Source: Cuniculiplasma divulgatum (GTDB lineage: Archaea; Thermoplasmatota; Thermoplasmata; Thermoplasmatales; Thermoplasmataceae). From it: DNA of 32,000 bases. Positions within the stretch are counted from its first letter, which is position 1. Every line of letters begins with the position of its first letter. The DNA lies in NCBI RefSeq assembly GCF_900083515.1, contig NZ_LT671858.1, forward strand, positions 1,890,001-1,922,000, in the 5' to 3' direction. The position numbers were made by a program, and so were the translations under genes. Positions 2,067-19,828 of this stretch are shown here, one piece after another. The notes under the pieces are model-generated. The model was not told the origin of the DNA and searched no databases. It worked only from the letters and a program-made list of their open reading frames with translations.

Positions 2067-2228
2067 CCACGAGAAAATGTCACAGGTCGTTAACTATTCG
2101 GCCGTAAAGTTGATCCAGTATTTTTGTAAGTATAAGTAAGATTTATGGGAGTATTTATGCAAATTAACTACGAAAGTTATATATTGTAATCAAAAATACA
2201 GGTAATATCACTACAAAGACTGATCATT

Positions 2229-3116
2229 ATGAGTGACGTCCTTCCTGAACTAGAACAGAAAAGAGAGATTTTAAGAAATCTGGTCGAAGACCATATCAAG
2301 AGGCGAGATGAGCTTTCGCAAGAAGCCCATTATTACGCTGAAGAGAGGGATAAACTTAACCAGAAATCTAAATCTATGCGAGAAATTGTTATGAAAAAGA
2401 TTGACGATAAGGGACAGCTTATCGAAAAAATTCAGAAAATGAGAAATGAAAAAGAAGATCATTTTAAAGAACTTTCTGAATTGAGAAGGGAGTTAAGAAA
2501 ATACCGTGATTCATTTAAATCACAGGGTGCTGATCCTTCTGAATTAAGAAGAAAGGAGAAGGAACTTCAAAGGCTTGAGAAAACCCAGCAGACTACGCAG
2601 CTTAAGAAGGATGAGGAAAAAAGGATAGTTCTTGAGATCAGGAAGCTCAGCAACGATATTAGAAAAACAAGGGAAGCTGTAGAAAAAGAACTGAAAGAAA
2701 ACGACAGTGTTAAGGATTTATCTGGAAAGATAAACGAGAAGAGAAAAGTTGTAGATGAGTTCAAGAAGGAAATTGACGAAATATCCAAACAGATAAATGG
2801 GCTTGGAGACGAGATTAGTAAGGGTCTTCAGGAACTTGATGAAACAAGAAAAAAAGCCGATGAATTTCATGAAATGTTTATAAAGTTCAATAAGGAATCT
2901 GAGAAAGAACATGAAGGGTTCATAAAGGCAAAAACTGAACTCAGAGACCTTGAAAAGATACTTGGTGGAATGGCAGCAAAAACTAGAGCCACCAGAAAGA
3001 AGGAGAAGGAAGGGGAATTACAGAATAAGGCAAATGTTCTTTTTGATAAATTTAAGAATGGGGAACAGCTCACAACAGAGGATCTCCTGATTCTCCAAAA
3101 AGCTGGATTTCTCTAA
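2229..3116 (+). CDS. Long K/E-rich coiled-coil protein (resembles the uncharacterised archaeal coiled-coil family I remember as COG1340)
   Basis: 295 aa that is almost entirely heptad-like charged helix, with no enzymatic motif. The long antisense ORFs on it are low-complexity artefacts. Confidence 0.65.
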   Translation: MSDVLPELEQKREILRNLVEDHIKRRDELSQEAHYYAEERDKLNQKSKSMREIVMKKIDDKGQLIEKIQKMRNEKEDHFKELSELRRELRKYRDSFKSQGADPSELRRKEKELQRLEKTQQTTQLKKDEEKRIVLEIRKLSNDIRKTREAVEKELKENDSVKDLSGKINEKRKVVDEFKKEIDEISKQINGLGDEISKGLQELDETRKKADEFHEMFIKFNKESEKEHEGFIKAKTELRDLEKILGGMAAKTRATRKKEKEGELQNKANVLFDKFKNGEQLTTEDLLILQKAGFL

Positions 3117-4201
3117 TCCAGGCTATTATTACTTTCAGAAGAAAGAGATACATTATAAATTCTTGACCCGTCCTGTATATTTATGTTTGATGAAAGAGCG
3201 CTCTCTATTACCTCACAGTCCTTCCCTATGGACGTCCCTTTCATTATTACTGACTTTGAAACAGTAGATTTCTTTCCTATACTACAGTTTTCAAATATTA
3301 TAGAATCCCTGACATTGCAGTTCTCTGCTATTACAGCATTGTCATAAACTGTTGAATTCTCTATTAAGGCATTCTTTCCAATTTTAACTCCTTCTCCTAT
3401 ATAGCAACTTCCTGTAACAGTAAAATCTGATCCTGCAGGTCTTTCCCTGATTATCATTTTCCCTTTAAAATTGGTCTCATTTATTTCGTTACCATACTTT
3501 TCTGACATGAGCTGGTTTGCAAGTATAAGTTCTCTTGGTCTTCCTGTATCAAGCCATGCTCCCTTGCCGTGATAAGTATTTATCTCAACTCCCTCTCTCA
3601 ATAGTTTAGGAAAGAGCTCCTTGGCAAAGTCATAAGTTTGATCTTCAGGTATATGATTGAATATTTCTGGTTCAAGAACATATATTCCGGCATTCACCAT
3701 ATTTGTAAAAACCTCAGCAGCAGTAGGTTTCTCAAGGAATCTCTTAACAATATTATTTTTATCCTCAACAATACCAAACTGCGTTGGATCTTCAACTTCA
3801 GTTAGTACTATGGTTGCAATCTTTCCACTCTCCCTGTGTGACCTCACCGCCTCTTCTATATCAAAGTCAGCAAGAACATCTCCACTTGCTACAACAAAGG
3901 TATCATTCAGAAAACCCTCAACCATTTTTACAGAACCTGCAGTTCCTGCTGGTTCTCTCTCTACAGAATACAGTATACTCTGCTTCTGGTGCTTTGTTTT
4001 TATCAATCCTGAGATCAGTGCTTCGAATTTATATCCTGTAGTAACTATGATATCTTCAATGCCAGCCTGTGCAAACGATCTAATTGGGTATTCCATACAA
4101 GGTATACCAGCAATGGGTACCAGTGGTTTAGGTATTGCATAGGTTATTGGCCTCAGCCTTGTTCCTCTTCCACCGGCCATTAAAACTCCCTTTAGAGACA
4201 T
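3113..4201 (-). CDS. Sugar-1-phosphate nucleotidyltransferase with C-terminal left-handed beta-helix (NDP-sugar pyrophosphorylase)
   Basis: N-terminal LMAGGRGTRLRPITYAIPKPLVPI (G-G-x-G-T-R-L-x-P signature). The C-terminus has hexapeptide repeats (IGEGVKIGKNALIENSTVYDNAVIAENCNV...). Sugar and nucleotide specificity cannot be read from the sequence. Confidence 0.85.
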   Translation of the reverse strand: MSLKGVLMAGGRGTRLRPITYAIPKPLVPIAGIPCMEYPIRSFAQAGIEDIIVTTGYKFEALISGLIKTKHQKQSILYSVEREPAGTAGSVKMVEGFLNDTFVVASGDVLADFDIEEAVRSHRESGKIATIVLTEVEDPTQFGIVEDKNNIVKRFLEKPTAAEVFTNMVNAGIYVLEPEIFNHIPEDQTYDFAKELFPKLLREGVEINTYHGKGAWLDTGRPRELILANQLMSEKYGNEINETNFKGKMIIRERPAGSDFTVTGSCYIGEGVKIGKNALIENSTVYDNAVIAENCNVRDSIIFENCSIGKKSTVSKSVIMKGTSIGKDCEVIESALSSNINIQDGSRIYNVSLSSESNNSLD

Positions 4202-4330
4202 AGTTCTACATACTCATTAATATTAAAAATATTGAGTATATAGAAGATGTGGAGGAAAATAGATAAAACCTATATTTTCTTCATTTGGTTTATAACTTCC
4301 CGTGATAGATTATAAGATCTATAATGCGGA

Positions 4331-6004
4331 TTATTTCTCTTCTTCGCCGTAGTATGGAATCTTAAATTTTACCCCCTTTCTCAGTAACTCCTTCGATGAT
4401 TCATATCCCGCATCCGCATGTCTTATAACTCCAATTCCGGGATCTGCATTGAGTACCCTTTTAATTTTATCCTCTGCTTCCTTTGTTCCATCGGCAACAA
4501 GTACAAAACCGGAATGGATTGCGTTACCTATTCCTGTACCTCCACCATGATGTACTGAAACCCATGTTGCTCCAGATGCAGTGTTTAGTAGAGCGTTAAG
4601 TATGGGCCAGTCTGCAATGGCATCAGAACCATCCTTCATGTTTTCTGTTTCCCTGTATGGAGATGCCACAGAACCCGTGTCGTGGTGATCTCTACCGATC
4701 GCAATTGGGGCCGAAAGATCTCCATCCTTTACCATGTCGTTCATTATAAGACCTATTTTTTCTCTTTCTCCATAGGCGGCGTAACATATCCTTGCCGGTA
4801 ACCCCTGGAACTTTACCTTTTCCCTTGCAAGTTTCAACCATTTCACGAGGTGATCATTATATCCTAGATGATATGAAATTGCCTCGTCAAGCTTGTAAAT
4901 ATCTTCCGGATCACCAGATAGGGCAACCCATCTAAACGGACCGGAACCAACTGCAAATAAATCTCTAATATATGCCGGCACGTATCCCTGTATCTCAAAT
5001 GCCCTGCTTTCTCCACCTTCCTTTGCTCTGGTTCTCAGGTTGTTACCATAATCAAAAACTTTAGAACCATATTCCTTCATCTTCAGTATCGCCCTAACTT
5101 CCTTGACTATGGATTCATAAACCTTCTTTCTGTATGCCTCGAAATCCTCTTCCCTAAACTTTGCAGCACTTTCAACGGTATATCCTTCTGGTATGTAACC
5201 TAAGTTCAGGTCATGGGCCGCTGTCTGATCCGTTACCACATCCGGAACTATTTTCTTTCTTGCAAGCTCATCGAAAATAGTTGCAGCATTTCCAAGCAAA
5301 CCAATTGATATGGGTTTTTTCTTCTGCACGTATTCATCCTTAATCCTAAGGGCATCGTCAAGATCCTTTGCCTGTACATCAAGATATTTTCCTTTCAATC
5401 TTCTGTCTATTTTCTCCTGATCGACATCTACAACTAAGCCAACACCATTATTCATTGTAATTGCCAGAGGTTGAGCACCTCCCATCTCTCCAAGACCAGC
5501 TGTGAGAACCCATTTTCCTGTTAGATCTGGTTGATTGAAATCCTTCTTGGCCATTGCGTGCAATGTTTCGTATGTACCCTGAAGAACACCCTGACTTCCT
5601 ATGTATATCCATGAACCTGCCGTCATCTGCCCAAACATTGTGAGACCTCTCTTTTCAAGATCCCAGAATATATCATCAGTTGCCCATTTTGGGACTATCT
5701 GGGCGTTGACAATAATAACACGTGGTGCTTCCTTTGTTGTCTTGAAAGCACCCACCGGCTTGCCAGACTGAATCAGTAGTGTTTCGTCGTTGTAAAGCTC
5801 TTTCAGCATTGCAACAATTTCATCAAAATCTTTCCATGTTCTTGCTGCCTTTCCTTTCCCTCCATAAACTATAAGGTTTTCTGGGTCCTTTGCAACTTCT
5901 GGATCGAGATTGTTCATAAGTAAACGAAGTGCGGCTTCCTGTTGCCATCCTCTTGCATTTAATTTTTTCCCTCTTGGAGCCCTTATTTCTTTATATTCTC
6001 TCAT
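4331..6004 (-). CDS. hutU: Urocanate hydratase (urocanase)
   Basis: 557 aa, a typical urocanase length. NAD-site motif [12 protein letters not shown] (canonical GLGGMGGAQ), plus conserved [13 protein letters not shown] and IGRDHHD segments. Confidence 0.9.
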
Positions 6005-6088
6005 AATTGTGTAAGGAAAATTAGTTTAATAACTCTTCTTTACCTAATAAGGGGTATTTCGGTGGTTCCTGCATATTATTTATGAAAT

Positions 6089-6676
6089 TTATTTTTCAGT
6101 TTTTACCGAATAGTAGAGACTCCCACCAAACGCTAGCGCCCAAATTATATTCGGAATCAGTATCAATCGTTCTATTCCCCCTACCCCAAGTCCCAGATCA
6201 TAGTATTTTGAAACTTCTATAGTTAGAGTGAAGAGTATTAAAGCTACCAGACCAAATGCTCCAAGAATGGCCCATATGATTGCCATTCCATCTTTCTTTT
6301 TGAAAAACACAAAAAATGAAGCTATTGATGCAAACACGAAGGCAAACAGTGCAAATATGAGATGGATATCTCCAAAGTGTTCATTGAATATTCCAACACC
6401 TGCTGCCCCTATTCCAGATAGTATAAGTGATACAGTTACCCCCATTGAATATTTCTTAAGAAATATTCCAGATAGCACCTCAAATATACCAAGAACAATT
6501 ATGCTGATATCAAAAATATAGGGAGTACTGTCGATTCCCAGATGACTTATGGTGTTGTTTGATATACTGTATCCCTTGTCCACAAAAGCAGCTATATTCA
6601 GAAATATGAAAAATTGGGCTATCCCTATGAAAAGGAACAAACCCCCATATTTGAAACTTTTATTATTTGATGCCAT
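6089..6676 (-). CDS. Polytopic membrane protein, DUF998-like
   Basis: 195 aa with about 6 hydrophobic spans. An ISHLG segment after the first span is as I remember for DUF998 proteins. Family call from memory only. Confidence 0.55.
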   Translation of the reverse strand: MASNNKSFKYGGLFLFIGIAQFFIFLNIAAFVDKGYSISNNTISHLGIDSTPYIFDISIIVLGIFEVLSGIFLKKYSMGVTVSLILSGIGAAGVGIFNEHFGDIHLIFALFAFVFASIASFFVFFKKKDGMAIIWAILGAFGLVALILFTLTIEVSKYYDLGLGVGGIERLILIPNIIWALAFGGSLYYSVKTEK

Positions 6677-6762
6677 AAAATATCAGTAGATTATACAATT
6701 TAAACTATAGTATAATTCTATTTTATTTAATAACTAAAATGGTTATGTGGTTAAAATTGATT

Positions 6763-8595
6763 TTACTTCATTGTTTTTTCAAGAAAGTTCCTTGTTTCCT
6801 TCATGGATTGTAGTATATGTTCCTTCTCTGTAAAACCGTGGCCTTCTCTGGGAAATAGAAGCAATCTTACGTCCTTTCCATTTTCCTTTAATGCTCTGTA
6901 GAACTGGAAGGACTGGCTTACTGGAACACATGGATCGGATTCTCCATGCATTATGAGAAGTGGTGTCTTTATGTTCTTTACGTATCTTAAAGGTGAGAAC
7001 TTTAAAAATTTATCAAACTCGAGTGCTTTCTGATCGTACTGAATTTCATCCCATTCTGGGATATTTGTTGTACCATGAAAACTGATCCAGTCAGAAATTC
7101 CGAAGAGAGAAATCGCTGACCTGAAAATGTCTGTTTGTGTAATTGCCCATTGAGTCATGAATCCACCATAGGAACCACCTGTTATTGCTATTTTATTCCT
7201 GTCAGAATATCCTTCTTTAATCAAGAATTGAACACCTGTTATCACATCATGCAGATCCATTCCTCCCATGTCACCAAAGTTCAAGCCCGCAAACTTCCTT
7301 CCTCTTCCTGTACTGCCCCTAAAATTTGGCATGAAAATGGAGTACCCCTCAGGAAGAAGGTATGAATATCTGTCCATGAAAGTTTCCTTTACAGAACCGG
7401 TTGGACCTCCATGAACTATCACAAGGGACGGCATATTCTTTCCTGGGTTCCTCAGGAAACCATTTATCTCAAGACCATCAACTGATTTCCATGATACAGA
7501 TTTCCATTCATAGGCCTTTATTTCCTTCATTTTCTCATTGTGTGTTGTGATCTGTTTATCGTTTCTTTCACCAATATTTACTACGAAAATCTCAGATGGA
7601 TTACTCTGGTCCGAAAACTCTATGAATATTTTTCCTGAAGTATAAACAAAGTCTGGAGCCATACCTGGACCCACACTTCCTCTCTTTTTCCATAATATTT
7701 CAGAATTTCCGCTAGAAAATCTCTCTATCATGAAATATTCCTTTTCCTGACAAATTGCAAGAAGATTTCCATTTTCATCCCACCTGGGTCCGCTATAGCT
7801 TTTTTCTGCATCCTTACTTATGTTTGTAACTTTACCTGATGTCGTTTCAAGGAACATTAGGTCCCCTGTCGTTACACCTCTATCACTCCATATAGATTCC
7901 ACAAAACTTAGTCTCGAACTATCATTTGAAAGTGATGGTAGTGCAACTTGCCCATTACTTGGCCTGTAGATCTTTCTCCATAATCCATTCATACTTATTT
8001 CAGCTATATAATTCTCGAACCAGCTCCCTTCTCTTGGTGAATCCGATGAAACCGCGTAAATCTTGCCGCTTTTATAATCGAATTCCCATATATGAGGAGT
8101 ATCCTTTATTTCACTGAATCCTTCTGTTAACCTGAGTTTGAATATTCTATTCTTTTCATCAGTTTCTTCAAAGAAATGCCCATCTTCTGCCTTCTCAATT
8201 TTATCCTTTGTGATAGGGGACGTGAGCATAATGATCTCATTATCTTTGCCCCACCTATAGTCTATTGGGGCCCCAGGGCACTTTAATTCCATTTCAGCTT
8301 TCTCCATTAAATTCCTTATATGAAGATTCCAGCTATCGTCCGTTCCTGAAATATACGATAGATGCTTATCGTCCATAGAAAATTTAGGAAGAGAAAGTTG
8401 ATGACCAGATTCTGATATAGATTCTTCAGACCCAGAGTCGATATTTTTCAATATAATTTTATTTTCCTGAGGTTTCTTAAATTCCTTATATCCCTGACCC
8501 AGTACATAACTTAATAACTTTCCATCACCACTCACAGTTTTCCCGGTTATGGTACTTAGATCGAAAATGCTTTCAATAACTGGTTCTCTTGACAT
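6763..8595 (-). CDS. S9-family serine peptidase (acylaminoacyl-peptidase / prolyl oligopeptidase type) with N-terminal beta-propeller
   Basis: C-terminal alpha/beta-hydrolase domain with nucleophile elbow ITGGSYGGFM, Asp in HGESDPCVP and His in REGHGF. The long N-terminal region is propeller-like. Confidence 0.85.
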   Translation of the reverse strand: MSREPVIESIFDLSTITGKTVSGDGKLLSYVLGQGYKEFKKPQENKIILKNIDSGSEESISESGHQLSLPKFSMDDKHLSYISGTDDSWNLHIRNLMEKAEMELKCPGAPIDYRWGKDNEIIMLTSPITKDKIEKAEDGHFFEETDEKNRIFKLRLTEGFSEIKDTPHIWEFDYKSGKIYAVSSDSPREGSWFENYIAEISMNGLWRKIYRPSNGQVALPSLSNDSSRLSFVESIWSDRGVTTGDLMFLETTSGKVTNISKDAEKSYSGPRWDENGNLLAICQEKEYFMIERFSSGNSEILWKKRGSVGPGMAPDFVYTSGKIFIEFSDQSNPSEIFVVNIGERNDKQITTHNEKMKEIKAYEWKSVSWKSVDGLEINGFLRNPGKNMPSLVIVHGGPTGSVKETFMDRYSYLLPEGYSIFMPNFRGSTGRGRKFAGLNFGDMGGMDLHDVITGVQFLIKEGYSDRNKIAITGGSYGGFMTQWAITQTDIFRSAISLFGISDWISFHGTTNIPEWDEIQYDQKALEFDKFLKFSPLRYVKNIKTPLLIMHGESDPCVPVSQSFQFYRALKENGKDVRLLLFPREGHGFTEKEHILQSMKETRNFLEKTMK

Positions 8596-8779
8596 CTGGA
8601 ACCATTGATTTCTGATATTTATAATTATTTAGGATTCACGATGACTTCCGTTGCTTTATTATATGGTAAAGATTTATTGATTATATTACTTGGAACAATT
8701 TGAATACCCATTAGATTAGTCGCCACTGTGATAAGATTTTTCTTAAAGTATTTCTAATAAGAAAGATTACCAGTTTAAC

Positions 8780-8852
8780 GCCACTGTGGCTTAGTAGGTA
8801 GAGCAGCTGATTTGTAATCAGCAGGTCGGGGGTTCAAATCCCTCCAGTGGCT
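8780..8852 (+). tRNA. tRNA-Thr (anticodon UGU), no encoded CCA
   Basis: Hand-folded cloverleaf:
- acceptor GCCACTG / CAGTGGC
- D stem GCTT / GAGC
- anticodon stem GCTGA / TCAGC with loop TT-TGT-AA
- variable loop AGGTC
- T stem GGGGG / CCCTC with loop TTCAAAT
- discriminator T. Confidence 0.9.
8812..8852 (+). repeat. 41-bp direct repeat copy 1 (attL-like), equal to the 3' half of tRNA-Thr
   Basis: TTGTAATCAGCAGGTCGGGGGTTCAAATCCCTCCAGTGGCT, identical 41/41 to 13406-13446. Identity ends on both sides (T vs C on the 5' side, C vs T on the 3' side). Confidence 0.9.
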
Positions 8853-8865
8853 CTTTTCTTGTTTT
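8853..8865 (+). terminator. T-rich tract after the tRNA (CTTTTCTTGTTTT)
   Basis: Archaeal RNAP terminates at oligo-T; the tract begins immediately after the discriminator base. Confidence 0.35.
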
Positions 8866-9323
8866 CCGAAGCAATGTACATTAATCGGAAGCTGACTTGC
8901 AATGAAATTAATTGAACAGTTTACTCTGCAGTTAACATATCCCTGAGACTATTCTGAAGCAGATAGTTCAAAATCCTGATTTTAAGGTGAGATTCCAGAG
9001 GGAAGTGGTAGAGAATCAAAAATAACTGTGCAGCATTTATTTTGAGTTGTTAAAAATACTTCATGAATTATTTTTGTATGTCCATCCAAAAAATTAGCAG
9101 TTGTTCTAGAATCTCCAAAGCATTTGAGTATGATAGCTGATCTTTAAATATTGCATAATAACTTAATTTGCTTCTATAAAGTAACATTGACTGTACCATA
9201 ATCCTCTGTGTTAGCGGAAATATCCTATTGATACTGATTTTTATTCTCTAAAATTTCAGTCCCAAATAGGAAAAAAACTTCTCCTAACTGTTTCCACTTT
9301 AACTGCACAATTTTGTTCCTTAG

Positions 9324-10577
9324 TTATGGTACCAAGGACTTGTGATGATTAATCCAGCAGACAACCATAACGATTCCTCCGGAAATGGCCATAAGTGATG
9401 CAACGCCTATAAACACATCTCTGACATTTAACCCGCTAGCTAGTATTCCTACAAAGATAGCGCCAAATCCATAGCCGGAATCCCGCCAGAGCCTGTAGAT
9501 ACCAAGTCTTGTCCCTCTTTCAGAGGGTTTGACCTTATCATTCACGGCGGCGATTAGAACAGGATACAGAAAAGCCATTCCGAGACCTGCAAGAAAACTC
9601 AGCAAGGCAATAATTACAATTCCATGAAAAAAGACGAAACCAACCATGGCAGTTGAATCAATCCAGAATCCAGTAATTATAAGGACATTGCGGTCAATAT
9701 GATCCGATAGCCTTCCTGTGATGATCTGGACTACCCCCCATGTTATCTGATAAATTCCAACCAAAACAGCTATGGTAAACAGGCTGAAGTGAAGTGAAAG
9801 AAGGTATAATGGCATGAGCCCCCAAAATACAACATCTACAAATTTCTCAAAGAGACCAGCCTGTGAATAGGAAAAGAGGAGTCTGTTTGACCATGATGTA
9901 TCTGTGAACATCTTAATGAATGAAACCGAACTACCTGCTTGATTAATTCCAAGTTCTTCTGATTTAGTAAAGCCTACAGTTTCCCTTATTGTGAGTGCCG
10001 TTGTTCCTATGGCCACAATTACAACTACGATTCCGAACAGAAATGATGCCCCCCTTAATCCATATGAAGCAGCCATGTACCCCGTAATGATTCCTGCAGT
10101 GGCCTGACCTATGTAGCCGGCCGCCTCGTTCAGTCCAACCGTGAGGCCCCGGGATGTGCTTCTGCTCAGATCCAGACCTGCGGTTACTGTCATAGTCCAG
10201 GCAAATGCCTGATTTACGCCTACGCCTATATTGGCCAGCACAATCATATTCCAGCTTGTCGAGAAGTAGAATATGAATGGGACTGGAATAGCCACAAGCC
10301 ATCCTATTAGAAGCAGTTTCTTTCTTCCAATGTCATCCGATATTTTTCCCGATACCAGATTGAGTACACTCTTTGTGAAGCCAAAAGCCGCCAAGAACGA
10401 GAGAATATATAAATACGATGAAATATGATATATGTCATTAGCCATTGCTGGGACGAGAACACGCTCTATCCCAAGGAACCATCCAATGAACAGGGTTAGT
10501 ATCAGAAGGATAACGTACTGTGTGGTGTCATGTGTTAATCTTTGTGGCGTGTCACCATTTTTCATACGAGAAACCAT
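9324..10577 (-). CDS. MFS transporter (12-TM type), substrate unknown
   Basis: 417 aa and highly hydrophobic. MFS motif-A-like GKISDDIGRKKLLLIG between TM2 and TM3, with a second-half repeat GRLSDHIDRN. The start is 3 nt after the stop of the upstream TrmB gene. Confidence 0.8.
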   Translation of the reverse strand: MVSRMKNGDTPQRLTHDTTQYVILLILTLFIGWFLGIERVLVPAMANDIYHISSYLYILSFLAAFGFTKSVLNLVSGKISDDIGRKKLLLIGWLVAIPVPFIFYFSTSWNMIVLANIGVGVNQAFAWTMTVTAGLDLSRSTSRGLTVGLNEAAGYIGQATAGIITGYMAASYGLRGASFLFGIVVVIVAIGTTALTIRETVGFTKSEELGINQAGSSVSFIKMFTDTSWSNRLLFSYSQAGLFEKFVDVVFWGLMPLYLLSLHFSLFTIAVLVGIYQITWGVVQIITGRLSDHIDRNVLIITGFWIDSTAMVGFVFFHGIVIIALLSFLAGLGMAFLYPVLIAAVNDKVKPSERGTRLGIYRLWRDSGYGFGAIFVGILASGLNVRDVFIGVASLMAISGGIVMVVCWINHHKSLVP

Positions 10578-10580
10578 GAA

Positions 10581-11351
10581 TCACTCCTTTGAGCATGCTG
10601 GTCTGGATCTGTCCCACATCATTTCGAAATGTTCTCTGGACTGTAAAACGCAATTACTGCAAGGTTCCACTATTCCGTAGATCTCATGGTCTTTCTCCAT
10701 GGATATCATAAACGAGGTCTCGTTGTCAAAAACATAGTACCTTGAATTCAACCTGTCATATATTCTTGAGAATGGTATGAGATCATCTGGAATTTCTTTT
10801 GCTTCGCTGGAGGAAAATATCATTTTCAACTGCACACCAGTTTTTGTTTTGATATTTTCTTGCAATTTACCATCCAGTGTTCTGATCCCCGGGTCCATTA
10901 CATAAATTGAATGTCGAGCTTTTTTTACCATGGTTTGGAGGTAATACTGTACTTTACTGGAACCCACTATGCTCCATGACACTTTGAGATCTCGCGATCT
11001 GTGTTCGTTCCTTCTCACCACTGACAAGTAATTGGTTAAATGATCCTCAATCTCATCGATCCTAGACCTTCCCTCCTCACACAGAATACTGATAACAATT
11101 TCTGGTTCAGGGATTAAGAACATAGAAGGATTACTCGAGACCTTCTGTACCAGATTAAGTTGGATCAATTTTTCTAAAACTGCGTATACTTTCGTGTAGG
11201 GAATCTCTGTTGTTTGGGAAAGCTCCTTTGCCGTCATCCCTCCGCGGGATAGTGTGAGAAATAGCTCAGCCTCATATTGTGTAAGCCCAAGATATTCAAG
11301 CTCATCTAATATTTCAAAATGTACATCTGGATTATCTTCAATATATGACAT
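10581..11351 (-). CDS. TrmB-family transcriptional regulator (N-terminal wHTH plus C-terminal TrmB-type effector domain)
   Basis: N-terminus LEYLGLTQYEAELFLTLSRGGMTAKELSQTTEIPYTKVYAVLEKLIQLNLV matches the TrmB wHTH pattern. At 256 aa it is long enough for a C-terminal sensing domain. The start is 1 nt after the MBL stop. Confidence 0.8.
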   Translation of the reverse strand: MSYIEDNPDVHFEILDELEYLGLTQYEAELFLTLSRGGMTAKELSQTTEIPYTKVYAVLEKLIQLNLVQKVSSNPSMFLIPEPEIVISILCEEGRSRIDEIEDHLTNYLSVVRRNEHRSRDLKVSWSIVGSSKVQYYLQTMVKKARHSIYVMDPGIRTLDGKLQENIKTKTGVQLKMIFSSSEAKEIPDDLIPFSRIYDRLNSRYYVFDNETSFMISMEKDHEIYGIVEPCSNCVLQSREHFEMMWDRSRPACSKE

Positions 11352-11352
11352 A

Positions 11353-12084
11353 TTAATCTTCCCTGATGTTTATCTCCCTTATCTTCTCCTTTTCAGATAT
11401 GGGTTGAGGTTCCATTTCTCCAAGTTTTTCTCTGAAATCACTGTATGATTCTGTCTGAAGGAGTGGATTGCAGAGCTGCTCATATCCCAGTGTAGAAGAG
11501 ACCTTTGGGCTCATGTTGGCACCACAGACAGATCCAGAATAGTGTGCAGGCATTAATTCGACAAAGCCCGGTAGACGCAATATTTTCTCGGTTATGCTTT
11601 CGTATAATTCATACGAAGTATCCATTCCAGAAATATCTGATCTTCCCACATCGCCAACAAATAGAGTGTCTCCTGTGAAGATTGTTGATGGAGTTTCAGG
11701 ATTTCTCTTATAATCGTAATACACCAAGGATATGCTCTCTGGTGTGTGCCCTGGTGTGTGTAATACCTCAATTCGTGCATTTCCTATTTTCATGGTATCT
11801 CCATCTTTCAGTGGGAGGAAATTAAATTCCACCTTTGCATCTTCAAACATATAAATTGGGGCGTCTACAAATCTATGCAATTTCTTAGCACCGGAGATAT
11901 GGTCGGCGTGAATGTGGGTCTCGATTATACCCTCTATCTTCAGTGCCAAAGAACTGGCCATCTTAATATATGTATCCACTTCATCTTTAGGATCGATTAC
12001 AAATGCTTTTCCGGAACTGGGGCATCCAACAATGTACGAAGCACACGAGTGTTCCTCATTCAGGATTTGTCTTAAAAGAGGCAT
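11353..12084 (-). CDS. Metallo-beta-lactamase-fold hydrolase of the glyoxalase II / persulfide dioxygenase-like group
   Basis: Metal motif ETHIHADHISG (H-x-H-x-D-H), HTPGHTPES, FTGDTLFVGDVGRSD, AHYSGSVCG. The precise activity (thioesterase versus sulfur dioxygenase) cannot be decided by eye. Confidence 0.8.
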   Translation of the reverse strand: MPLLRQILNEEHSCASYIVGCPSSGKAFVIDPKDEVDTYIKMASSLALKIEGIIETHIHADHISGAKKLHRFVDAPIYMFEDAKVEFNFLPLKDGDTMKIGNARIEVLHTPGHTPESISLVYYDYKRNPETPSTIFTGDTLFVGDVGRSDISGMDTSYELYESITEKILRLPGFVELMPAHYSGSVCGANMSPKVSSTLGYEQLCNPLLQTESYSDFREKLGEMEPQPISEKEKIREINIRED

Positions 12085-12090
12085 ATTTTG

Positions 12091-12111
12091 TTATTATCCT
12101 GCGGATAATAA
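12091..12111. promoter_or_regulatory. Perfect palindrome TTATTATCC-TGC-GGATAATAA overlapping the TATA/initiation region of the MBL-TrmB-MFS operon (candidate operator)
   Basis: 9-bp arms with a 3-nt spacer. Read on the minus strand, the distal arm TTATTAT sits about 24-27 nt upstream of the ATG at 12084 (leaderless geometry) and the proximal arm is at about -15 to -7. Confidence 0.45.
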
Positions 12112-12440
12112 GGCTTCTGCTTTTTTTAAATTTAAAGGTTAAATTCAATCAGCAACCCATCAGACTCATCTATAAATTCTTCCCTCAAAGTGAAACCAGC
12201 TCTTCTTTTTGCAGCATGGCGTTTTTCAATGAGTTTGTAAAAACTAGATTGAATGATCATAACTGAAGAAAAATTCTAAGTCCGCATTAACACAATATGC
12301 TCACTAAGGCCAGACGGGGGAGTTGTGGAAAATCAATTTATATTTGACAATAACCGGGAATGCTATGGAGCACATTAAGCAGAAGATTTGTTTAATCTTA
12401 TGTGTTTTTTTTTAATCGTTCCATGATGGTTTTTCGAGAT

Positions 12441-12462
12441 TGTCGTCGATATATAGACAACA
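12441..12462. promoter_or_regulatory. Imperfect palindrome TGTCGTCGATA|TATAGACAACA containing a TATA box, upstream of the small-protein/PadR operon
   Basis: 9 of 11 positions pair. The core GATATATAG is TATA-like and lies about 30-35 nt upstream of the ATG at 12488; a second TATA-like TTATATAG is at 12463-12470. The symmetry is partly trivial because TATA is itself palindromic. Confidence 0.35.
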
Positions 12463-12487
12463 TTATATAGGAAACAATAATACTCTC

Positions 12488-12712
12488 ATGAGGAGAAAAC
12501 AAATGTGTGGAATGAATAAAAACAAGTGTGGATGCGACAACGAAAACATGGAATCCAGAATGTCTCGATGCGGCCAGATGTTTCGGAACCGTTCTGAAAA
12601 GGATGTGGCTGAAGACCTTGAGGACTACAAGGAACAGCTGGAGAATGAGATATCAATGCTTGAGAGAAAACTGGCAAGGATCAAGTCGCACAAGAATGAG
12701 AACGTGGAGTAA
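12488..12712 (+). CDS. Small protein: N-terminal 4-Cys cluster plus C-terminal acidic coiled coil (uncharacterised)
   Basis: The ORF track frame starts at TTG 12440, but that start would lie upstream of the TATA elements. ATG 12488 (or 12503/12512) gives MRRKQMCGMNKNKCGCDNENMESRMSRCGQMF... followed by EDLEDYKEQLENEISMLERKLARIK. No family firmly recognised. Confidence 0.55.
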   Translation: MRRKQMCGMNKNKCGCDNENMESRMSRCGQMFRNRSEKDVAEDLEDYKEQLENEISMLERKLARIKSHKNENVE

Positions 12713-12746
12713 ACGTATCTCCACATAAATTTAGAGGTGACTGGGA

Positions 12747-12977
12747 TTGTTGAAATGTGCTGATTGTGGCGATACTGTAATGCCAGGTAAAGAGTTTCCG
12801 TTTGAAATAGAAGGAGTTGTAAGAGTATACGGTTGTGAACTCTGTGCTCTGCATCATGCAAAAGTTCTTGAGATAGAAAAAATAGAGAAACAGTATGCGA
12901 CAATTGCAGCAAAGAGGGAAGAATTGAAAGAAATAGAAATTCAGAAAGAACTACTAAGAAAGGAGGTTGGAAAGTAA
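12747..12977 (+). CDS. Small protein: CxxC-x21-CxxC zinc-ribbon/TRASH-like module plus K/E-rich coiled coil (uncharacterised)
   Basis: Sequence MLKCADCGDTVMPGKEFPFEIEGVVRVYGCELCALHH... SD-like GAGGTGA at 12734-12740 precedes the TTG start. The stop TAA is directly followed by the GTG start of the PadR gene. Confidence 0.6.
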   Translation: MLKCADCGDTVMPGKEFPFEIEGVVRVYGCELCALHHAKVLEIEKIEKQYATIAAKREELKEIEIQKELLRKEVGK

Positions 12978-13334
12978 GTGGATAAAAATTGCTCCTGTCG
13001 ATGTGGCCCATTCAAAGTAAGTCTTATCCCCCCGGGAGTACTCAAGCCTTTGATACTTAAAATTCTTGAAGATAACCCCATGCATGGATATGAAATAATG
13101 AATGAAATTTCCCTGCGCACACAAGGTTACTGGAGGCCCACCGCTGGCTCCATATATCCTGCCCTTGGCTCACTGGAAAAAGATAGATATGTGGAAAGGC
13201 GTGAATTAATGCAGGGAGAGCGGGCAAGACAGATGTATATTATTACGGATCTTGGAAGAGAAACCATAAAAGACATGTCTCAGTTTTCTGAGAGCTGGAA
13301 GAATGGACTTAATAAGCTTATGGGGTTATTGTAA
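12978..13334 (+). CDS. PadR-family transcriptional regulator with N-terminal Cys cluster (CSCRCG)
   Basis: LKPLILKILEDNPMHGYEIMNEI...GSIYPALGSLEKDRYV is the PadR wHTH signature. SD AGGAGGT at 12961-12967 lies 10 nt before the GTG start. A roughly 20-aa N-terminal extension carries three Cys. Confidence 0.8.
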   Translation: MDKNCSCRCGPFKVSLIPPGVLKPLILKILEDNPMHGYEIMNEISLRTQGYWRPTAGSIYPALGSLEKDRYVERRELMQGERARQMYIITDLGRETIKDMSQFSESWKNGLNKLMGLL

Positions 13335-13390
13335 TAGATACTGGCGAAAAGAATGAAGAATACAACGATATGTCGCGTTTCATTAGAACT

Positions 13391-13400
13391 CTTCTTTTTC
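13391..13400 (+). terminator. T-rich tract (CTTCTTTTTC) after the PadR operon, immediately before the orphan tRNA half
   Basis: Oligo-T of the archaeal terminator type, 57 nt after the PadR stop. Confidence 0.3.
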
Positions 13401-13405
13401 CTATC

Positions 13406-13446
13406 TTGTAATCAGCAGGTCGGGGGTTCAAATCCCTCCAGTGGCT
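13406..13446 (+). repeat. 41-bp direct repeat copy 2 (attR-like): orphan 3' half of tRNA-Thr
   Basis: Identical to 8812-8852. The sequence 5' of it (13371-13405) has no similarity to the tRNA 5' half, so no cloverleaf can form. Confidence 0.9.
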
Positions 13447-13649
13447 TATAGGTAAAATAGTTCATTTTTGATTTGTACTCACTTTAATTTTTCTGGAAGT
13501 GTGTGTCATGTGAATTCTTATTTTTTTCCTTGTTCTGATGCATTTTAATTTATAATGAATTAGTGTAATTAGATGCTTTATGGTGATAGTTAAACATTCT
13601 CACACCGTAATTTAGATCTTACATGTATTAATTTTTTGCTCGATTTCAA

Positions 13650-14276
13650 TCAAATTTTTACTATTTCCAGAATTAGCCTTTTTCTTCCTCCAAAATTATC
13701 GAGAAATATCTTATAATTCACCACTCCAGAGAGACGCATCAACCGTTTGATACTGCCTCTGGTATGATTGAAGCTTGGCATTGCTTCAAATCCGTCGATA
13801 AAGTTTTTTTCCACAAGTCCACTGGACCTGTGATTTCTCATTTCAATAATTGCAATTCCTTTTTCCATTAGTACCCTGTATATTTCGTGAATAACTGCGA
13901 TTTGTTCCTGTTCAGTGGAAAGCTCGCTGAACGCGTTCCACATGCAAATGACATAGTCAAATGAATCTTCCGGGTATGGGATGCTTTGCATGTTCCCATT
14001 TTTGAATTCAATATTCAGACTTCTTTTCTTAGTCTCTTCCCTGGCTCTTTCAATGAAAATTGGAGTGATATCCATCCCATAAACGGTATACCCATATTCT
14101 GCAAGGGGAATCGAAAATCTTCCATATCCACAGGCCAGATCCAATATTGTTGAACCATTTCTTAGGATACCTGTGAGATATGATAATTCACTCTCAGTCT
14201 GGGCAGTGTTTTTTCTCGCAGAAAGCCAATCGACACCCATTTCTGTATAAAATTCCTTTGATGTTTTTATATGCAT
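13650..14276 (-). CDS. Class I SAM-dependent methyltransferase (small-molecule type)
   Basis: Motif I ILDLACGYGRF, an acidic residue ending beta-2 (YGMDIT), and motif post-II FDYVICMWNAF. 208 aa. Confidence 0.8.
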   Translation of the reverse strand: MHIKTSKEFYTEMGVDWLSARKNTAQTESELSYLTGILRNGSTILDLACGYGRFSIPLAEYGYTVYGMDITPIFIERAREETKKRSLNIEFKNGNMQSIPYPEDSFDYVICMWNAFSELSTEQEQIAVIHEIYRVLMEKGIAIIEMRNHRSSGLVEKNFIDGFEAMPSFNHTRGSIKRLMRLSGVVNYKIFLDNFGGRKRLILEIVKI

Positions 14277-14519
14277 ATGTTAATTATTACCAATCGCGTA
14301 TTACAATATTAATCCACCTTTGCCAATTTTGTATGTAATTATCTACCCTTGGTTGTTTTATTGGTAATTCCTTTTTAAATTTTCCACCTATTTATCACTA
14401 ACCAGAGATTCTTCTAATATATAATTGAAATAACTCCTTAAAACTATACTCTGTTTAAATGAAATTTCACAGGGATGAATGATCTCTTTTTTAATATACT
14501 GTAGATTATACCATTCCAT

Positions 14520-15731
14520 ATGGATAGAGACATTGTTCAGGTATCAATGAAAGATGTTGCCAGATTCTCTATTATTCGGCAGCACCTTTCGGAAAAGCCG
14601 GGCAAGAGATTGAATGAGAAGCAGAAAATTTTGGAAATTTTTAAGGATTTAAAATACGTCCAGATCGATCCTGTGTACACAGTAGAAAGAAGTCATTTCC
14701 TTACCCTCTGGAGCAGATTGGGTAACTTTAACAGGCAGAATCTTCTAGACCTAATATACAGAGATCATCTTCTGGTTGAATCCTATGCTCATCAGGCATC
14801 TATTTCAATTATTGACGATCTGCATATTTTAAAAATGAGTATGAATGAAAGAAAGGAAAGATATTTGAAAACACATCCCGAAATAAAGCCTTCAATTGAA
14901 CAGATTAAAGAGTTTATCAGGTCAACCGGACCAACAACATCAAACAAACTTTCAGAGTTAAAAATTGAATCTGGAATAAGTGGCTGGGGGCATGAAAGAA
15001 AGGTAAATTTACTGCTTAACCTGATGCACAGAATGGGAGAATTAATTATATGTGATAGAACAGAATCAAACCAGAAGGTGTGGAATGTCCCTGATAGTGA
15101 TTTTAGTGGGTTAACGGAGAAGAACACTATTGACAGGAAAGAGGTCGAAAAAGTAGTATTTCAGAAATCCCTTGAGTCACTTGGTATTGCCTCTCCAGAG
15201 CAGATCAAAAGGCATTATTCTCCTGTTAGTATTTCTAATGGAGTTCAAATCGTGAACGAACTTCAGGATGAATCAGTTATAGTACCGGTGGAAATAACCA
15301 ATAATAACTCAAAGATGAGAAAAAAATGGTTCATACTAAAAAAGGATATACCATATCTGGAAAATCTTGAAAATAATTGGATGCCACCATCTGTCCTGCT
15401 TTCTCCCTTTGATAATCTAACTATAGACAGAAAGAGGACAGAAGAGATATTCAATTTTGATAGCCGAATGGAAATGTATATTCCAAAACATAAAAGAAAA
15501 TATGGGTTCTACTGCATGCCATTCCTTCATGGTGACAGAATAATAGGAAGAGTTGACCTGAAATTAGATCGCCATAATAGTGAACTAAAGATCAATGCGA
15601 TCTATGATGAGGGTAGATATTTTTCTCAGAAGAGGGTTCTAGGAACAATGATTGATTCGTTAAATTCCTTGTCAGAATTTCTTAACGCATCATCTATTAA
15701 AATTCCTCAAACCATTCAATATAGTAAATGA
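14520..15731 (+). CDS. YcaQ-like winged-helix DNA glycosylase family protein (HTH_42 / DUF1006; interstrand-crosslink glycosylase family)
   Basis: N-terminal VARFSIIRQHL and LKYVQIDPVYTVERSHFLTLWSRL contain the Q-phi-D catalytic motif described for E. coli YcaQ. About 400 aa, typical of the family. Confidence 0.75.
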   Translation: MDRDIVQVSMKDVARFSIIRQHLSEKPGKRLNEKQKILEIFKDLKYVQIDPVYTVERSHFLTLWSRLGNFNRQNLLDLIYRDHLLVESYAHQASISIIDDLHILKMSMNERKERYLKTHPEIKPSIEQIKEFIRSTGPTTSNKLSELKIESGISGWGHERKVNLLLNLMHRMGELIICDRTESNQKVWNVPDSDFSGLTEKNTIDRKEVEKVVFQKSLESLGIASPEQIKRHYSPVSISNGVQIVNELQDESVIVPVEITNNNSKMRKKWFILKKDIPYLENLENNWMPPSVLLSPFDNLTIDRKRTEEIFNFDSRMEMYIPKHKRKYGFYCMPFLHGDRIIGRVDLKLDRHNSELKINAIYDEGRYFSQKRVLGTMIDSLNSLSEFLNASSIKIPQTIQYSK

Positions 15732-16049
15732 GAAGTTTATCCCAAAATTTTCCCTTATTTTAATTGTAATATTTTGGTTTTTTCAACGTTAAATGGGTGT
15801 TGAATGAAGAGAAATGCGCCTCAGAATGACTTATTGTGGGGATTATAACTATTGTTTTAAAGTTGAAATGAAGAATGTTCATATTAATAATGTGTATGTT
15901 AATTATTGATTCTATTAAGAATGGCTGCGTGGAGTATATATCAGAATTTTTCTGAATACAATGCTAATTTGGGATAAAGTAAGATTGTAATCATCTAAAG
16001 AAAGGTTTATATTGCTTGACACTATCTAGCACGATGAACACAAAAAGAA

Positions 16050-16631
16050 GTGGTTTATTTTATAGGCAATGAGAAAACAGATGATAATCTTGAAAAATTA
16101 AGAGAAGATCTTCTATTGAATACTCTTGAAATTACAGATATGTTCAGGAAAAGAGTAGAATTATCACGCCTTATATTTCAGGAAAAGCTAAGGAAAGGTG
16201 TTACCCTTCGTGATAGAAATCAAGAATTGAGGGTTATCAGAAGAATTGGTGTAAGGTCTGTTGAGGAACGCAGTTTCGTTAATGCGCTTTTTGAACTAAC
16301 TACCCAGGCACAGGCAGGTTTGATATCTGGTAAGTCAGAAGAAGAATGTGATTGTGAAACAGCAGAATATCAAATTGGAAGAATAATATGCCTGACTGGA
16401 GATGAAATATACCACAACTGTGACAGGGAGCATCCATTCATTAAAGCGGCAATCTCAAGAGGTTCACATATAGTGTGTGGCAGCATAGAAGATTATGACC
16501 TAAAAATTAGTATTCGAACTGATGAACTTAATCTTAAGATAGACGCTTTCAATAATAAATTGAAGAAATTTTCCTTTGATGATTTGCTAAAACCGAGTGG
16601 ATTCAAGAAAATTCTTGTGGAGTGTGATTGA
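16050..16631 (+). CDS. Chorismate mutase (AroQ-type N-terminal domain) fused to an unrecognised Cys/His-rich domain of about 100 aa
   Basis: LEKLREDLLLNTLEITDMFRKRVELSRLIFQEKLRKGVTLRDRNQELRVIRRI fits the AroQ helical pattern (R...R...K...D..R-E). GTG start. The context next to tyrA and DAHP synthase supports the call. The C-terminal half is unassigned. Confidence 0.55.
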   Translation: MVYFIGNEKTDDNLEKLREDLLLNTLEITDMFRKRVELSRLIFQEKLRKGVTLRDRNQELRVIRRIGVRSVEERSFVNALFELTTQAQAGLISGKSEEECDCETAEYQIGRIICLTGDEIYHNCDREHPFIKAAISRGSHIVCGSIEDYDLKISIRTDELNLKIDAFNNKLKKFSFDDLLKPSGFKKILVECD

Positions 16632-16632
16632 T

Positions 16633-17304
16633 ATGAAAATACTGGTTGTGGGTTCTTCCGGTAGGTTTGGGGCTACTCTCCTGAATTTATTCAAAGGCAC
16701 TGGACATGAAGTGAGAGGAGTTGATATTCAGGATTATGGGAAATTAAAGGAAGAAATGAAGATTGCTGAATTTATATTTCTGGCTGTTCCAGCCTCAGTT
16801 GCCCTGGGTATTATAAATGAGTTTGGTGCTACAAGGAAAATTATCGAGATATCATCCTCAAAGGATCCATTCAAAAAATTTGCGGGAAAGATAATAAGCA
16901 TACATCCGCTGTTTGGTCCTCTTTCCTTAGATGATCTGAAATTGAGAAATATACTGTTCATCAATGACATTTCATTTTTAGGATCAGAAAATATAATATC
17001 TGCTCTTTTCCCTGGTTATAATATTATTCCAATGAAATCTGATGAGCATGATCACCTGATGATAGAACTTCAGGTAATACCCTATGTAATTTCCATGTTA
17101 TCTTCCAGAATCTCCAGTAAAACTGAATTGAAAACTAGATCTAGAATCATTCTGGATCAGATGTCTGATGTTTGTTCCTTACAGGGTTCCTTAACCCTTC
17201 TAGACACTATCAGATTGAATCCTTTTTCAAAGAATGCAATTGAGACTGTAAGTAAAACCATTGATGAACTAAGAGGTGAAATTTTTGATAATAATACCAA
17301 ATAA
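16633..17304 (+). CDS. tyrA: Prephenate dehydrogenase
   Basis: Rossmann start MKILVVGSSGRFG and catalytic-His motif SIHPLFGP. ATG 16633 (1 nt after the upstream stop) is preferred over the GTG at 16597 in the track. Confidence 0.7.
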   Translation: MKILVVGSSGRFGATLLNLFKGTGHEVRGVDIQDYGKLKEEMKIAEFIFLAVPASVALGIINEFGATRKIIEISSSKDPFKKFAGKIISIHPLFGPLSLDDLKLRNILFINDISFLGSENIISALFPGYNIIPMKSDEHDHLMIELQVIPYVISMLSSRISSKTELKTRSRIILDQMSDVCSLQGSLTLLDTIRLNPFSKNAIETVSKTIDELRGEIFDNNTK

Positions 17305-18259
17305 TGAGGCGAACGAACCATTCGTGAATGATGCCCTCATGGATTCTTCAATGTCGTTCCGAAAGATCAGTCTTTATGGAAGGAGCCTTTTTATCACTAA
17401 TTTCTCTTCCACAGAAAATATTGATTACATACCGATCAAGGATGCAATTGTGATATCTGATGGCCTGTACTCAAGAAAGGTAAAAAAGGACTCTACTAAT
17501 GTTACTGTTGGAAACGTGAAAATAGGATCTGGAAAACTTGTGATTGCTGCAGGCCCATGCGCAGTAGAATCGGAAGAACAGTTGATGGAAATTGGAGAGA
17601 GAGTTAAGGAAATGGGTGCAAATATGCTGAGAGGGGGAGCTTTCAAACCCAGAACAACCCCATATTCCTTTCAGGGTTTAGGAGTTAAGGGAATTAACAT
17701 GATGAAGAAAGTTAGTGACTATACTGGACTTCCAACTGTCTCAGAAATTATGGATATATCATATTACAAACATTTTGATGGAAAAATTGACATGATTCAG
17801 GTAGGGTCAAGGAATTCGCAGAACTTTGCACTTCTGAGATTTTTAGGTCAGAAAGGAATGCCTGTACTTCTGAAGAACGGAATGGGAAATACAATATCAG
17901 AATGGCTAAATTCAGCTGAATACATTCTATCGGGAGGTAATGGAAACGTTGTGATGTGTTATCGCGGTGTAAGAAGCTTCGAGGACAGCACACGATTCAT
18001 GATGGATAGTGGTGCCATACCTGTTTTAAGAGAAAGGTCACATTTGCCTGTTTGTGCAGATCCAAGCCATCCTGCAGGAAAGAGAGAATATGTCGAGACA
18101 CTGGCCATGGCGGCAGTTGCTTCCGGAACGGATATGCTGGAAATTGAAGTACACAACAATCCGGATGAAGCTCTTTCTGATGCAAAACAGCAACTTGATT
18201 TTATGGGATTCTCAAAATTGATAAAGAAAGTCAGAAAATTGAAAGAAATTGTTGGATGA
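17276..18259 (+). CDS. 3-deoxy-7-phosphoheptulonate (DAHP) synthase, type I-beta, with a short N-terminal extension
   Basis: AAGPCAVESEEQ (metal Cys), GGAFKPRTTPYSFQGLG (KPRT motif), CADPSH (metal His). The start is uncertain: GTG 17276 overlaps the tyrA end, with an alternative ATG at 17339. Confidence 0.85.
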   Translation: MKFLIIIPNNEANEPFVNDALMDSSMSFRKISLYGRSLFITNFSSTENIDYIPIKDAIVISDGLYSRKVKKDSTNVTVGNVKIGSGKLVIAAGPCAVESEEQLMEIGERVKEMGANMLRGGAFKPRTTPYSFQGLGVKGINMMKKVSDYTGLPTVSEIMDISYYKHFDGKIDMIQVGSRNSQNFALLRFLGQKGMPVLLKNGMGNTISEWLNSAEYILSGGNGNVVMCYRGVRSFEDSTRFMMDSGAIPVLRERSHLPVCADPSHPAGKREYVETLAMAAVASGTDMLEIEVHNNPDEALSDAKQQLDFMGFSKLIKKVRKLKEIVG

Positions 18260-18291
18260 GTTGAGTGAGAGATTTAACAAAGGCATAATAA

Positions 18292-19494: not shown

Positions 19495-19581
19495 CTTTGT
19501 ATTATTTTGAAGATTGATTGCCAGTAACCGCTTTTTCTTTCAGGTTGCAATGACAATCTCATTTTCCTGACTGTATCATTT

Positions 19582-19818: not shown

Positions 19819-19828
19819 TTTAATCACC

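Follow-up and report, generated by a model that had tools for sequence, protein, structure and literature searches.

In contig NZ_LT671858.1 of the archaeon Cuniculiplasma divulgatum, a stretch of 32,000 nucleotides, hereafter called the window and numbered from its first letter, contains a tRNA-Thr(UGU) gene followed by a small island of six genes, at whose far end the 3′ half of the same tRNA recurs. The tRNA gene is the sole one called by ARAGORN in the window (8780-8853, plus strand; Rfam places its end at 8852). Its 3′ half at 8812-8852 agrees with the second copy at 13406-13446 in 41/41 positions and in direct orientation, with identity extending 0 nt on either side, and the chance expectation for an exact 41-mer pair in 32 kb is ~1e-15. 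No third copy was found on either strand of the window, sub-fragments down to 15 nt included, and no degenerate copy (≥24/41) occurs elsewhere in it. In the 32 nt preceding the second 41-mer, 6/32 positions match the tRNA 5′ half, and neither ARAGORN nor Rfam calls a tRNA there. An earlier note on this DNA had described an exact direct repeat whose second copy is preceded by DNA unlike a tRNA 5′ half; both descriptions were borne out, and the concern that the 41-mer might be a dispersed generic repeat is answered, for the window, by the lack of further copies. A tRNA-integrated island is recognised by a complete target tRNA on one side and, on the other, a directly repeated copy of its 3′ part. 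This arrangement is seen here, and the window tRNA-Thr is rebuilt from a host 5′ part (nt 1-32) and the 41-nt identity block. An anticodon-loop sublocation class of tRNA target sites was reportedly distinguished by Williams in 2002.

The corresponding empty site is present in two close relatives, ATDV01000007.1 of 'Thermoplasmatales archaeon Gpl' (G-plasma; L033) and DAHVGN010000002.1 (L032), which were reached through a homologue (97% amino acid identity) of the methyltransferase encoded to the right of the second repeat. Both contigs are 97-99% identical to the window at the nucleotide level and collinear with it from the acetyl-CoA synthetase gene to FtsZ. In blastn alignments with the reverse complements (rc) of these contigs, window 1-8852 corresponds to L033rc 945-9797 (97.2%) and window 13406-24276 to L033rc/L032rc 9757-20627 (98.8-98.9%). 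The two alignments overlap in the relative by exactly one 41-mer, so that 8852 is joined directly to 13447, and over 20 kb the island with one repeat is the only large difference between the window and L033. In both relatives, the methyltransferase gene is followed by 460 nt with one tRNA-Thr, identical to that of the window, and then by peptidase S9. In other words, the search for an empty site that the earlier note had proposed found a single 41-mer between contiguous flanks. Since the repeats are perfect and the host DNA is 97-99% identical to the empty-site genomes, the insertion in the window must be young, and that it is real and recent is almost certain.

Exact-protein look-ups with the window methyltransferase and the S9 peptidase returned nothing or only a 1.9-kb contig. 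The host is an acid-mine archaeon of the G-plasma/Cuniculiplasma type. Published genomes of this group share 98.4-98.8% average nucleotide identity, and the genomic-island tables of the same paper do not list the cassette, having no PadR or lactamase entry (PMC5155288). One island-identical contig (Logan contig SRR26661587_821; L003) stops 31 nt into the tRNA 3′ end, at 3469-3499. Short-k (k=31) Logan contigs of this kind are interrupted at the 41-bp repeat, so occupied, empty and circular forms are indistinguishable there.

The island itself spans 8853-13405 (4553 bp, or 4594 bp together with one repeat copy), and its features are collected in Table 1. Its genes form two divergent cargo operons, as the earlier note had stated, with three genes on the minus strand and three on the plus strand, between a longer left and a shorter right non-coding arm. 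Against other copies of the island, described below, dN/dS is 0.09-0.25 across all six genes; this purifying selection indicates that the cargo is functional rather than decaying. No other 4.5-kb stretch of the window deviates as much in composition as the island (tetranucleotide distance 0.179 vs 0.134 ± 0.014), and the island genes have a higher GC content at third codon positions (GC3), so that the proposed compositional check shows it to be mildly atypical. The position of the left arm is constant in all island copies, and it contains no conserved open reading frame (ORF). Between copies, identity amounts to 56-73% in the non-coding arms and 40-70% in the divergent intergenic region, vs 81-94% in the genes. 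An Rfam scan of the island returned the tRNA only and no non-coding RNA in the 471-nt left arm. A functional RNA in that arm was considered and dropped, given the empty scan and the lower conservation of the arm than of the genes.

Table 1. Features of the tRNA-Thr island and its host flanks (window coordinates)
Feature	Position	Strand	Basis
Host left flank: S9 peptidase	6763..8595	-	syntenic with tRNA-Thr in all close relatives
Intact tRNA-Thr(UGU), integration target	8780..8852	+	ARAGORN; Rfam RF00005, 74 bits
attL core, 41 nt, U33 (anticodon included) to discriminator base	8812..8852	+	exact repeat
Left arm, 471 nt, non-coding; T-rich stretch directly after tRNA	8853..9323	.	arm alignment
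MFS transporter, 417 aa	9324..10577	-	PF07690, E 8e-42; dN/dS 0.09-0.11
TrmB-family transcriptional regulator, 256 aa	10581..11351	-	PF01978, E 9e-16; dN/dS 0.15-0.23
MBL-fold protein, 243 aa, persulfide-dioxygenase/glyoxalase-II-like	11353..12084	-	PF00753; dN/dS 0.13-0.22
Divergent intergenic region, presumed promoters	12085..12439	.	position between two operons
Small Cys-rich coiled-coil protein, 69 aa from ATG 12503	12503..12712	+	dN/dS 0.16-0.25
76-aa protein, CxxC...CxxC (zinc-ribbon-like) and coiled-coil parts	12747..12977	+	dN/dS 0.13-0.16
PadR-family transcriptional regulator, 118 aa	12978..13334	+	PF03551, E 1e-21; PDB PadR relatives; dN/dS 0.17-0.25
Right arm, 71 nt, non-coding	13335..13405	.	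alignment of right ends
attR core = displaced tRNA-Thr 3′ half	13406..13446	+	exact repeat
Host right flank: intergenic DNA and class I SAM methyltransferase (13650-14276)	13447..14276	-	contiguous with tRNA at empty site

A central property of the island is that it lacks any enzyme of its own for integration. Searches with Pfam and PHROGs, together with tblastn for SSV-type integrases, found no integrase, replication or virion genes inside the island, in agreement with the earlier note, and none in the rest of the window. A tyrosine or serine integrase inside the element, as expected of a tRNA-integrated island, is thus absent. Remnants were sought at the island ends with the N-terminal (Int(N)), C-terminal (Int(C)) and reconstituted full-length forms of an SSV-type integrase described below, and tblastn matched only the 14 residues encoded by the attachment (att) block. 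Beside the att copies, the integrase frame is open for only 32 and 37 codons, in non-homologous sequence; the 37-aa ORF that follows the right att copy shows no similarity to Int(C), and the right arm of 71 nt leaves no room for a C-terminal integrase fragment. No split PF16795 gene, with int(N) and int(C) at the two ends, is therefore present, and the island fails the defining test both of an SSV-type element and of an Islander-type island. Its att site, by comparison, is of the SSV type, lying in the 3′ part of a tRNA and sharing 41 bp of identity where ~40-45 bp is usual. The island DNA matched neither PLSDB plasmids nor GenBank phages, and the 41-mer had no match in viral contigs.

Further copies of the island were traced by a protein search with TrmB, followed by a look-up of the encoding contigs. 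Three other groups of contigs (L015/L016, L017-L019 and L020-L022) contain the whole block, from tRNA-Thr through both arms and the six genes to the displaced half, at 82-86% nucleotide identity to the window, and none of these copies includes an integrase. Homology between the window and L015-L022 begins at 8780, the 5′ end of the tRNA, and ends at 13446-13450, with different flanks on both sides. In a further contig, ACXJ01009984.1 (L010), the left arm and the MFS gene are 95.2% identical to the window. There, the junction in the anticodon loop links the island to another tRNA 5′ half, the flank upstream differs as well, and stop codons interrupt the integrase frame of the left arm. The tRNA-Thr-adjacent island is thus found in at least four other Thermoplasmata lineages (L010, L015/L016, L017-L019, L020-L022). 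Between the window and L017, the island proteins share 81-92% identity, vs 57% for the host DAHP synthase, a single gene and possibly a paralogue. Taken together, the distribution is patchy, the island seems more conserved than its hosts, and the breakpoints coincide with the att block.

The state of the displaced half separates the age of the insertion from that of the architecture. In L015-L022, it has decayed to 68-83% identity to the window copy, about as much as other non-coding DNA, and in L017 it reads ctattaatcagcagaccggcggtttcaaatccttccagtggct. Since it is perfect in the window and decayed in those lineages, the window insertion must be young, and the integrase-less architecture old. 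Moreover, the old copies (82-89%) share the arms and lack an integrase, and the 95% copy of L010 lies in another background; the unit was therefore most likely integrase-less before it entered the window genome and already consisted of cargo and att at that point.

Copies of the cassette are also seen in other settings. Contigs L034 (1-4244) and L035 (1-3917) contain a version that matches the island, over the equivalent of window 8909-13402, at 89% identity and has different flanks; neither a tRNA nor the 41-mer was found at either of its ends. The cassette therefore also occurs outside the tRNA-Thr context. In L015, the tRNA joined to the island (12490-12562) is a tRNA-Thr(CGU), the others being UGU. 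As the att block starts at U33 and contains the anticodon, the anticodon of the rebuilt tRNA is supplied by the island, and an insertion could in principle change the isoacceptor of the rebuilt tRNA-Thr.

L001, the syntenic relative that ranks next in closeness after the G-plasma-type genomes, presents host DNA collinear with the window (83.8% nucleotide identity) from which the island is absent. Between tRNA-Thr and an AlkZ-like gene (L001 4807-9742 vs window 8853-14478), this contig has other cargo, which includes an ArsR/HTH_34 regulator, an ABC transporter and a RIO kinase and lacks the methyltransferase of the window. Directly after the tRNA, L001 retains ~60-70 nt of left-arm-like DNA (z = 5.4-6.1; 0/1000 shuffles reach the score), and no such remnant was found in the controls L002, L009, L013 and L014. 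The differing cargo and the left-arm remnant mark the trailer of tRNA-Thr as a hot spot for gene turnover. Degenerate att copies were found in neither L001 nor L002, and there is no sign of tandem islands there or in the window.

An enzyme family that uses the same att is present in related metagenomes. An exact scan of metagenome contigs for the 41-mer returned six loci, and in two of them (L011 and L012) it lies at the start of an opposite-strand ORF and has no tRNA 5′ half in front. Both ORFs match PF16795, 'Archaeal phage integrase' (E 6e-46 and 1e-44), and on the opposite strand the 41-mer encodes SHWRDLNPRPADYK inside the integrase genes of L011, L012 and L009. L009 (1-13381) and L012 (1-2449) are pieces of one 15.8-kb contig, JAEHJW020002670.1, whose order was inferred from the positions of Int(N) and Int(C). 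On that order, an intact tRNA would be followed by Int(N) reading through att, with Int(C) by a displaced half ~15.4 kb away. The identity block of this element measures 44 bp (ac, the 41-mer and t), and L014 is the matching empty site. An att site within the gene and a split into Int(N) and Int(C) are the anatomy that defines SSV-type, or 'suicidal', integrases (PMC8371274). The identical 41-mer thus lies inside PF16795 integrase genes of L009/L012, L011 and L029, all from related metagenomes and from a different genome than the window.

A search with the reconstituted integrase brought up 117 relatives from Thermoplasmata metagenomes and none from viral contigs. Many of these relatives are Int(C) fragments of ~275 aa whose first residues are encoded by a tRNA (MDRSGFEPEASCLRS..., MNPRPPACKARQ...); forms of ~305-317 aa are unsplit, and the tRNA-Thr peptide occurs only in the closest relatives of the query. 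Two integrases with this peptide come from ENA assemblies ERZ27237019 and ERZ27237183, and window-identical contigs from ERZ27237502 and from samples SRR26661584-89; the three ENA accession numbers are close, and these assemblies may belong to one study. Split SSV-type integrases are thus common in acidophilic Thermoplasmata. Two reviews of suicidal integrases name only Sulfolobales, Thermococcales, Archaeoglobales and a few Methanosarcinales.

The cargo of the L009/L012 element comprises an Eco57I-like type IIG restriction-modification enzyme, a CAP12/Pycsar-type TIR-domain protein, and DUF6308 and HSDR_N proteins. With restriction-modification and TIR cargo, this ~15.4-kb element at the tRNA-Thr att site is a mobile defence island; L011, L029 and L030 are related loci grouped with it.

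From these observations, we consider it probable, with some reserve, that 8853-13405 is a small non-autonomous integrative island that recently entered tRNA-Thr(UGU) and was moved by an enzyme from elsewhere. A presumed circular form with one 41-nt tRNA 3′ segment would recombine with the identical segment of the chromosomal tRNA, and this recombination would rebuild an intact tRNA at the left junction and leave a displaced 3′ half at the right one. As the island most likely had no recombinase on arrival, the enzyme would have been supplied from elsewhere. The likeliest source would be the suicidal tyrosine integrase of a co-resident element with the same 41-mer att, acting in trans; that an enzyme of this kind was responsible may be put at close to an even chance, if slightly less. 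Alternatively, the island and a helper could have stood in tandem and moved as a composite, from which the helper later excised precisely. This variant may also have operated and is counted within the helper-dependent model, to which a putative helper and a putative route of cell-to-cell transfer belong.

The biochemistry of such enzymes is compatible with this scheme. Given circular substrates with the specific tRNA-derived sites, the suicidal integrases of pTN3 and pT26-2 catalyse both integration and excision in vitro, in every tested arrangement and cofactor-free, and an exogenous related integrase excised integrated elements in the case of SSV2 and of pTN3 acting on TKV4 (PMC8371274; PMC7253208). 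The earlier note had read the locus as the footprint of a tyrosine recombinase in the 3′ part of a tRNA gene. The insertion itself stands, given the empty site and the att block, and the candidate enzyme family has been narrowed to PF16795. Where that note had left a choice between a decayed and a trans-mobilised island, the latter is favoured over the former, as the old copies have the same short arms and no integrase and the window insertion is recent.

Several observations weigh against helper-dependent movement. The elements excised in trans still held a related Int(C) fragment, which may contribute to the reaction (PMC8371274), and the island has none. No integrase of 41-mer specificity was found in the 32 kb of the window's own genome, and the hosts of the integrase-bearing elements differ from the window in the tRNA 5′ half and in the flanks. 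Among the six 41-mer metagenome loci, the circular junction (13405 / 41-mer / 8853) was not found, and the loci retrieved include no tandem arrangement of island and helper. The contrast in divergence between island and host in distant lineages depends on DAHP synthase, with the limits given above. Finally, the host's own machinery, recombining across the 41 identical bp, would arrive at the same product.

This last point leads to the rival that survives best, an integrase-free insertion of the Campbell type, in which the homologous-recombination machinery of the host (RadA) would loop the island out of a donor through the 41-bp repeats and the circle or a linear fragment, once taken up, would recombine with the recipient tRNA-Thr. 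The absence of an integrase suits such a course, it would leave the same traces as a site-specific event, namely an exact 41-bp duplication and an intact tRNA, and many Thermoplasmata tRNA-Thr genes share the identical 41-mer, which offers homology in many recipients. However, the identity block has the limits typical of an integrase att, from the anticodon loop to the discriminator base, and is the same block that the SSV-type integrases of related contigs have as their att. In addition, every tRNA-linked lineage (the window, L010, L015/L016, L017-L019 and L020-L022) uses tRNA-Thr and no other tRNA or repeat; the copy of L034/L035, with neither a tRNA nor the 41-mer, is the one exception to this rule. 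As 41 bp is also a short substrate for homologous recombination, we regard this route as unlikely, and as one to be kept in view.

It is improbable that the island is instead an ancestral resident that was precisely excised in G-plasma and DAHVGN01, with the window repeats kept identical by gene conversion from the tRNA. The family is indeed old and associated with tRNA-Thr in several lineages, and the left-arm remnant of L001 suggests past occupation in the wider clade. Yet that remnant is as distant from the window arm as from the arms of other lineages, the nearest copy (95%) lies in a different genomic background, and the composition of the island deviates from that of the host. Moreover, a precise loss that restores the empty attB site would also need recombination between the repeats, that is, the same mechanism.

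Lower still in probability stands a formerly autonomous element that arrived with its own integrase, either split SSV-type or classical, and lost it in place by deletion. Loss of the integrase after integration has been reported for archaeal integrated elements (PMC8371274), and in L026 a distant MBL-TrmB-MFS operon adjoins a PF00589 recombinase and a ParE toxin-antitoxin pair. However, with host DNA only 1-3% away from the empty-site genomes and perfect repeats, little time has passed for such a deletion, and no Int(N)- or Int(C)-like remnant is present. The arms (471/71 nt) are also collinear with those of long-diverged integrase-less copies, so that a deletion would have to recreate the same boundaries, within a few bases of the att. 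The chance that the second 41-mer is a functional 3′ half gene of a split tRNA, a type that exists in some archaea (PMC3218864; PMC3293823), or a decayed tandem tRNA-Thr remnant is negligible, since the intact tRNA is complete alone, the 32 nt upstream match the 5′ half as poorly as stated above, and the copy decays like neutral DNA in other lineages and is absent from the empty-site genomes.

With helper-dependent movement as the preferred explanation, the closest parallels are found in bacteria. The cis-mobilizable elements (CIMEs) of Streptococcus, like other 'hitcher' elements such as CALINs, are bounded by att sites shared with an autonomous element that encodes the corresponding tyrosine integrase. 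CIMEs carry cargo only, and their mobility is expected to come from a helper integrase in trans or from accretion next to the helper; such helper-dependent mobility of CIMEs and hitcher elements is described in PMC11389934, PMC5704250 and PMC7563491. The island agrees with them on three counts: it has att sites at both ends and no recombination or transfer genes, its att matches that of autonomous elements encoding a cognate integrase in related metagenomes, and the integrase-less unit occurs in different genomic backgrounds (the window, L010, L015, L017 and L020). Unlike CIMEs, it has an archaeal host, its att is a 41-nt tRNA 3′ half, and the att of the candidate helpers lies inside their own integrase gene; its helper-dependence is putative, and no tandem accretion was seen. 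By criteria applied at the sequence level, the island is thus a putative archaeal counterpart of the bacterial cis-mobilizable elements.

Archaeal systems resemble the island in other respects. SSV1/SSV2, pTN3, pT26-2 and the TKV elements likewise target the 3′ part of a tRNA, leave a direct repeat of ~41-44 nt and rebuild the tRNA, whereas the island has neither int(N) nor int(C) and no virus or plasmid genes. In archaeal 'gene capture' (She et al. 2001, 2004, as cited in PMC8371274), foreign genes also lie by a tRNA with att repeats and no working integrase. Gene capture is supposed to trap an element through the split of its own integrase and subsequent decay, in contrast to the present case, where the integrase-less form itself appears to move. 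The tRNA-targeted islands of Islander (PMC4383910) similarly regenerate the tRNA and have the displaced fragment at the far end, yet they are defined together with a tyrosine integrase gene inside, which the window island lacks.

Small islands without mobility genes are usually dismissed as decayed remnants. The combination of an empty site, old integrase-less copies and an integrase family with the same att makes a testable case that the integrase-less form is itself mobile. If true, helper-dependent hitcher elements would be extended to archaeal integrative elements, suicidal integrases would gain a further role in moving foreign DNA, and the cassette class would be the archaeal equivalent of CIMEs and satellites. 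More broadly, and only tentatively, Thermoplasmata may harbour a class of cassettes made of cargo and a tRNA att, spread between genera by the suicidal integrases of other elements. As the CGU tRNA of L015 beside the UGU of the others illustrates, such cassettes could also alter the anticodon when the tRNA is rebuilt.

Operons distantly related to the minus-strand one (MBL-TrmB-MFS, 65-85% amino acid identity), lacking the PadR module, are present in L026 (5719-11644) and in L023, L024 and L025. In L026, the ParE toxin belongs to a ParE/DUF7557 pair, the PF00589 recombinase has 482 aa, and an AAA protein is also adjacent. In L023-L025, the operon lies in an ORFan-rich region with a TnpB/IS605 OrfB gene. 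The suggestion that the L001 cargo and L026 are parts of one larger element was rejected, as only a 43% HTH_34 match connects them.

Regarding the cargo proteins, mechanical delimitation of the small Cys-rich coiled-coil gene puts its ORF start at 12440 (90 aa), and in all relatives the gene is called with 66-69 aa; in the Pfam scan, it gave a weak prefoldin-like match. The 76-aa CxxC protein is kept in all island copies. In the PDB, the MBL protein is closest to persulfide dioxygenases and their rhodanese fusions (3tp9, 3r2u, ETHE1 (4chl) and BpPRF). The cargo probably serves detoxification and export of sulfur or organic compounds. Among the host genes at window 18292-20254 are those of a sulfide:quinone-reductase-like flavoprotein and a DsrE-like protein, with a TusA-like protein in the annotation of relatives, and, speculatively, these nearby sulfur genes fit a role of the persulfide-dioxygenase-like island protein in sulfur detoxification.

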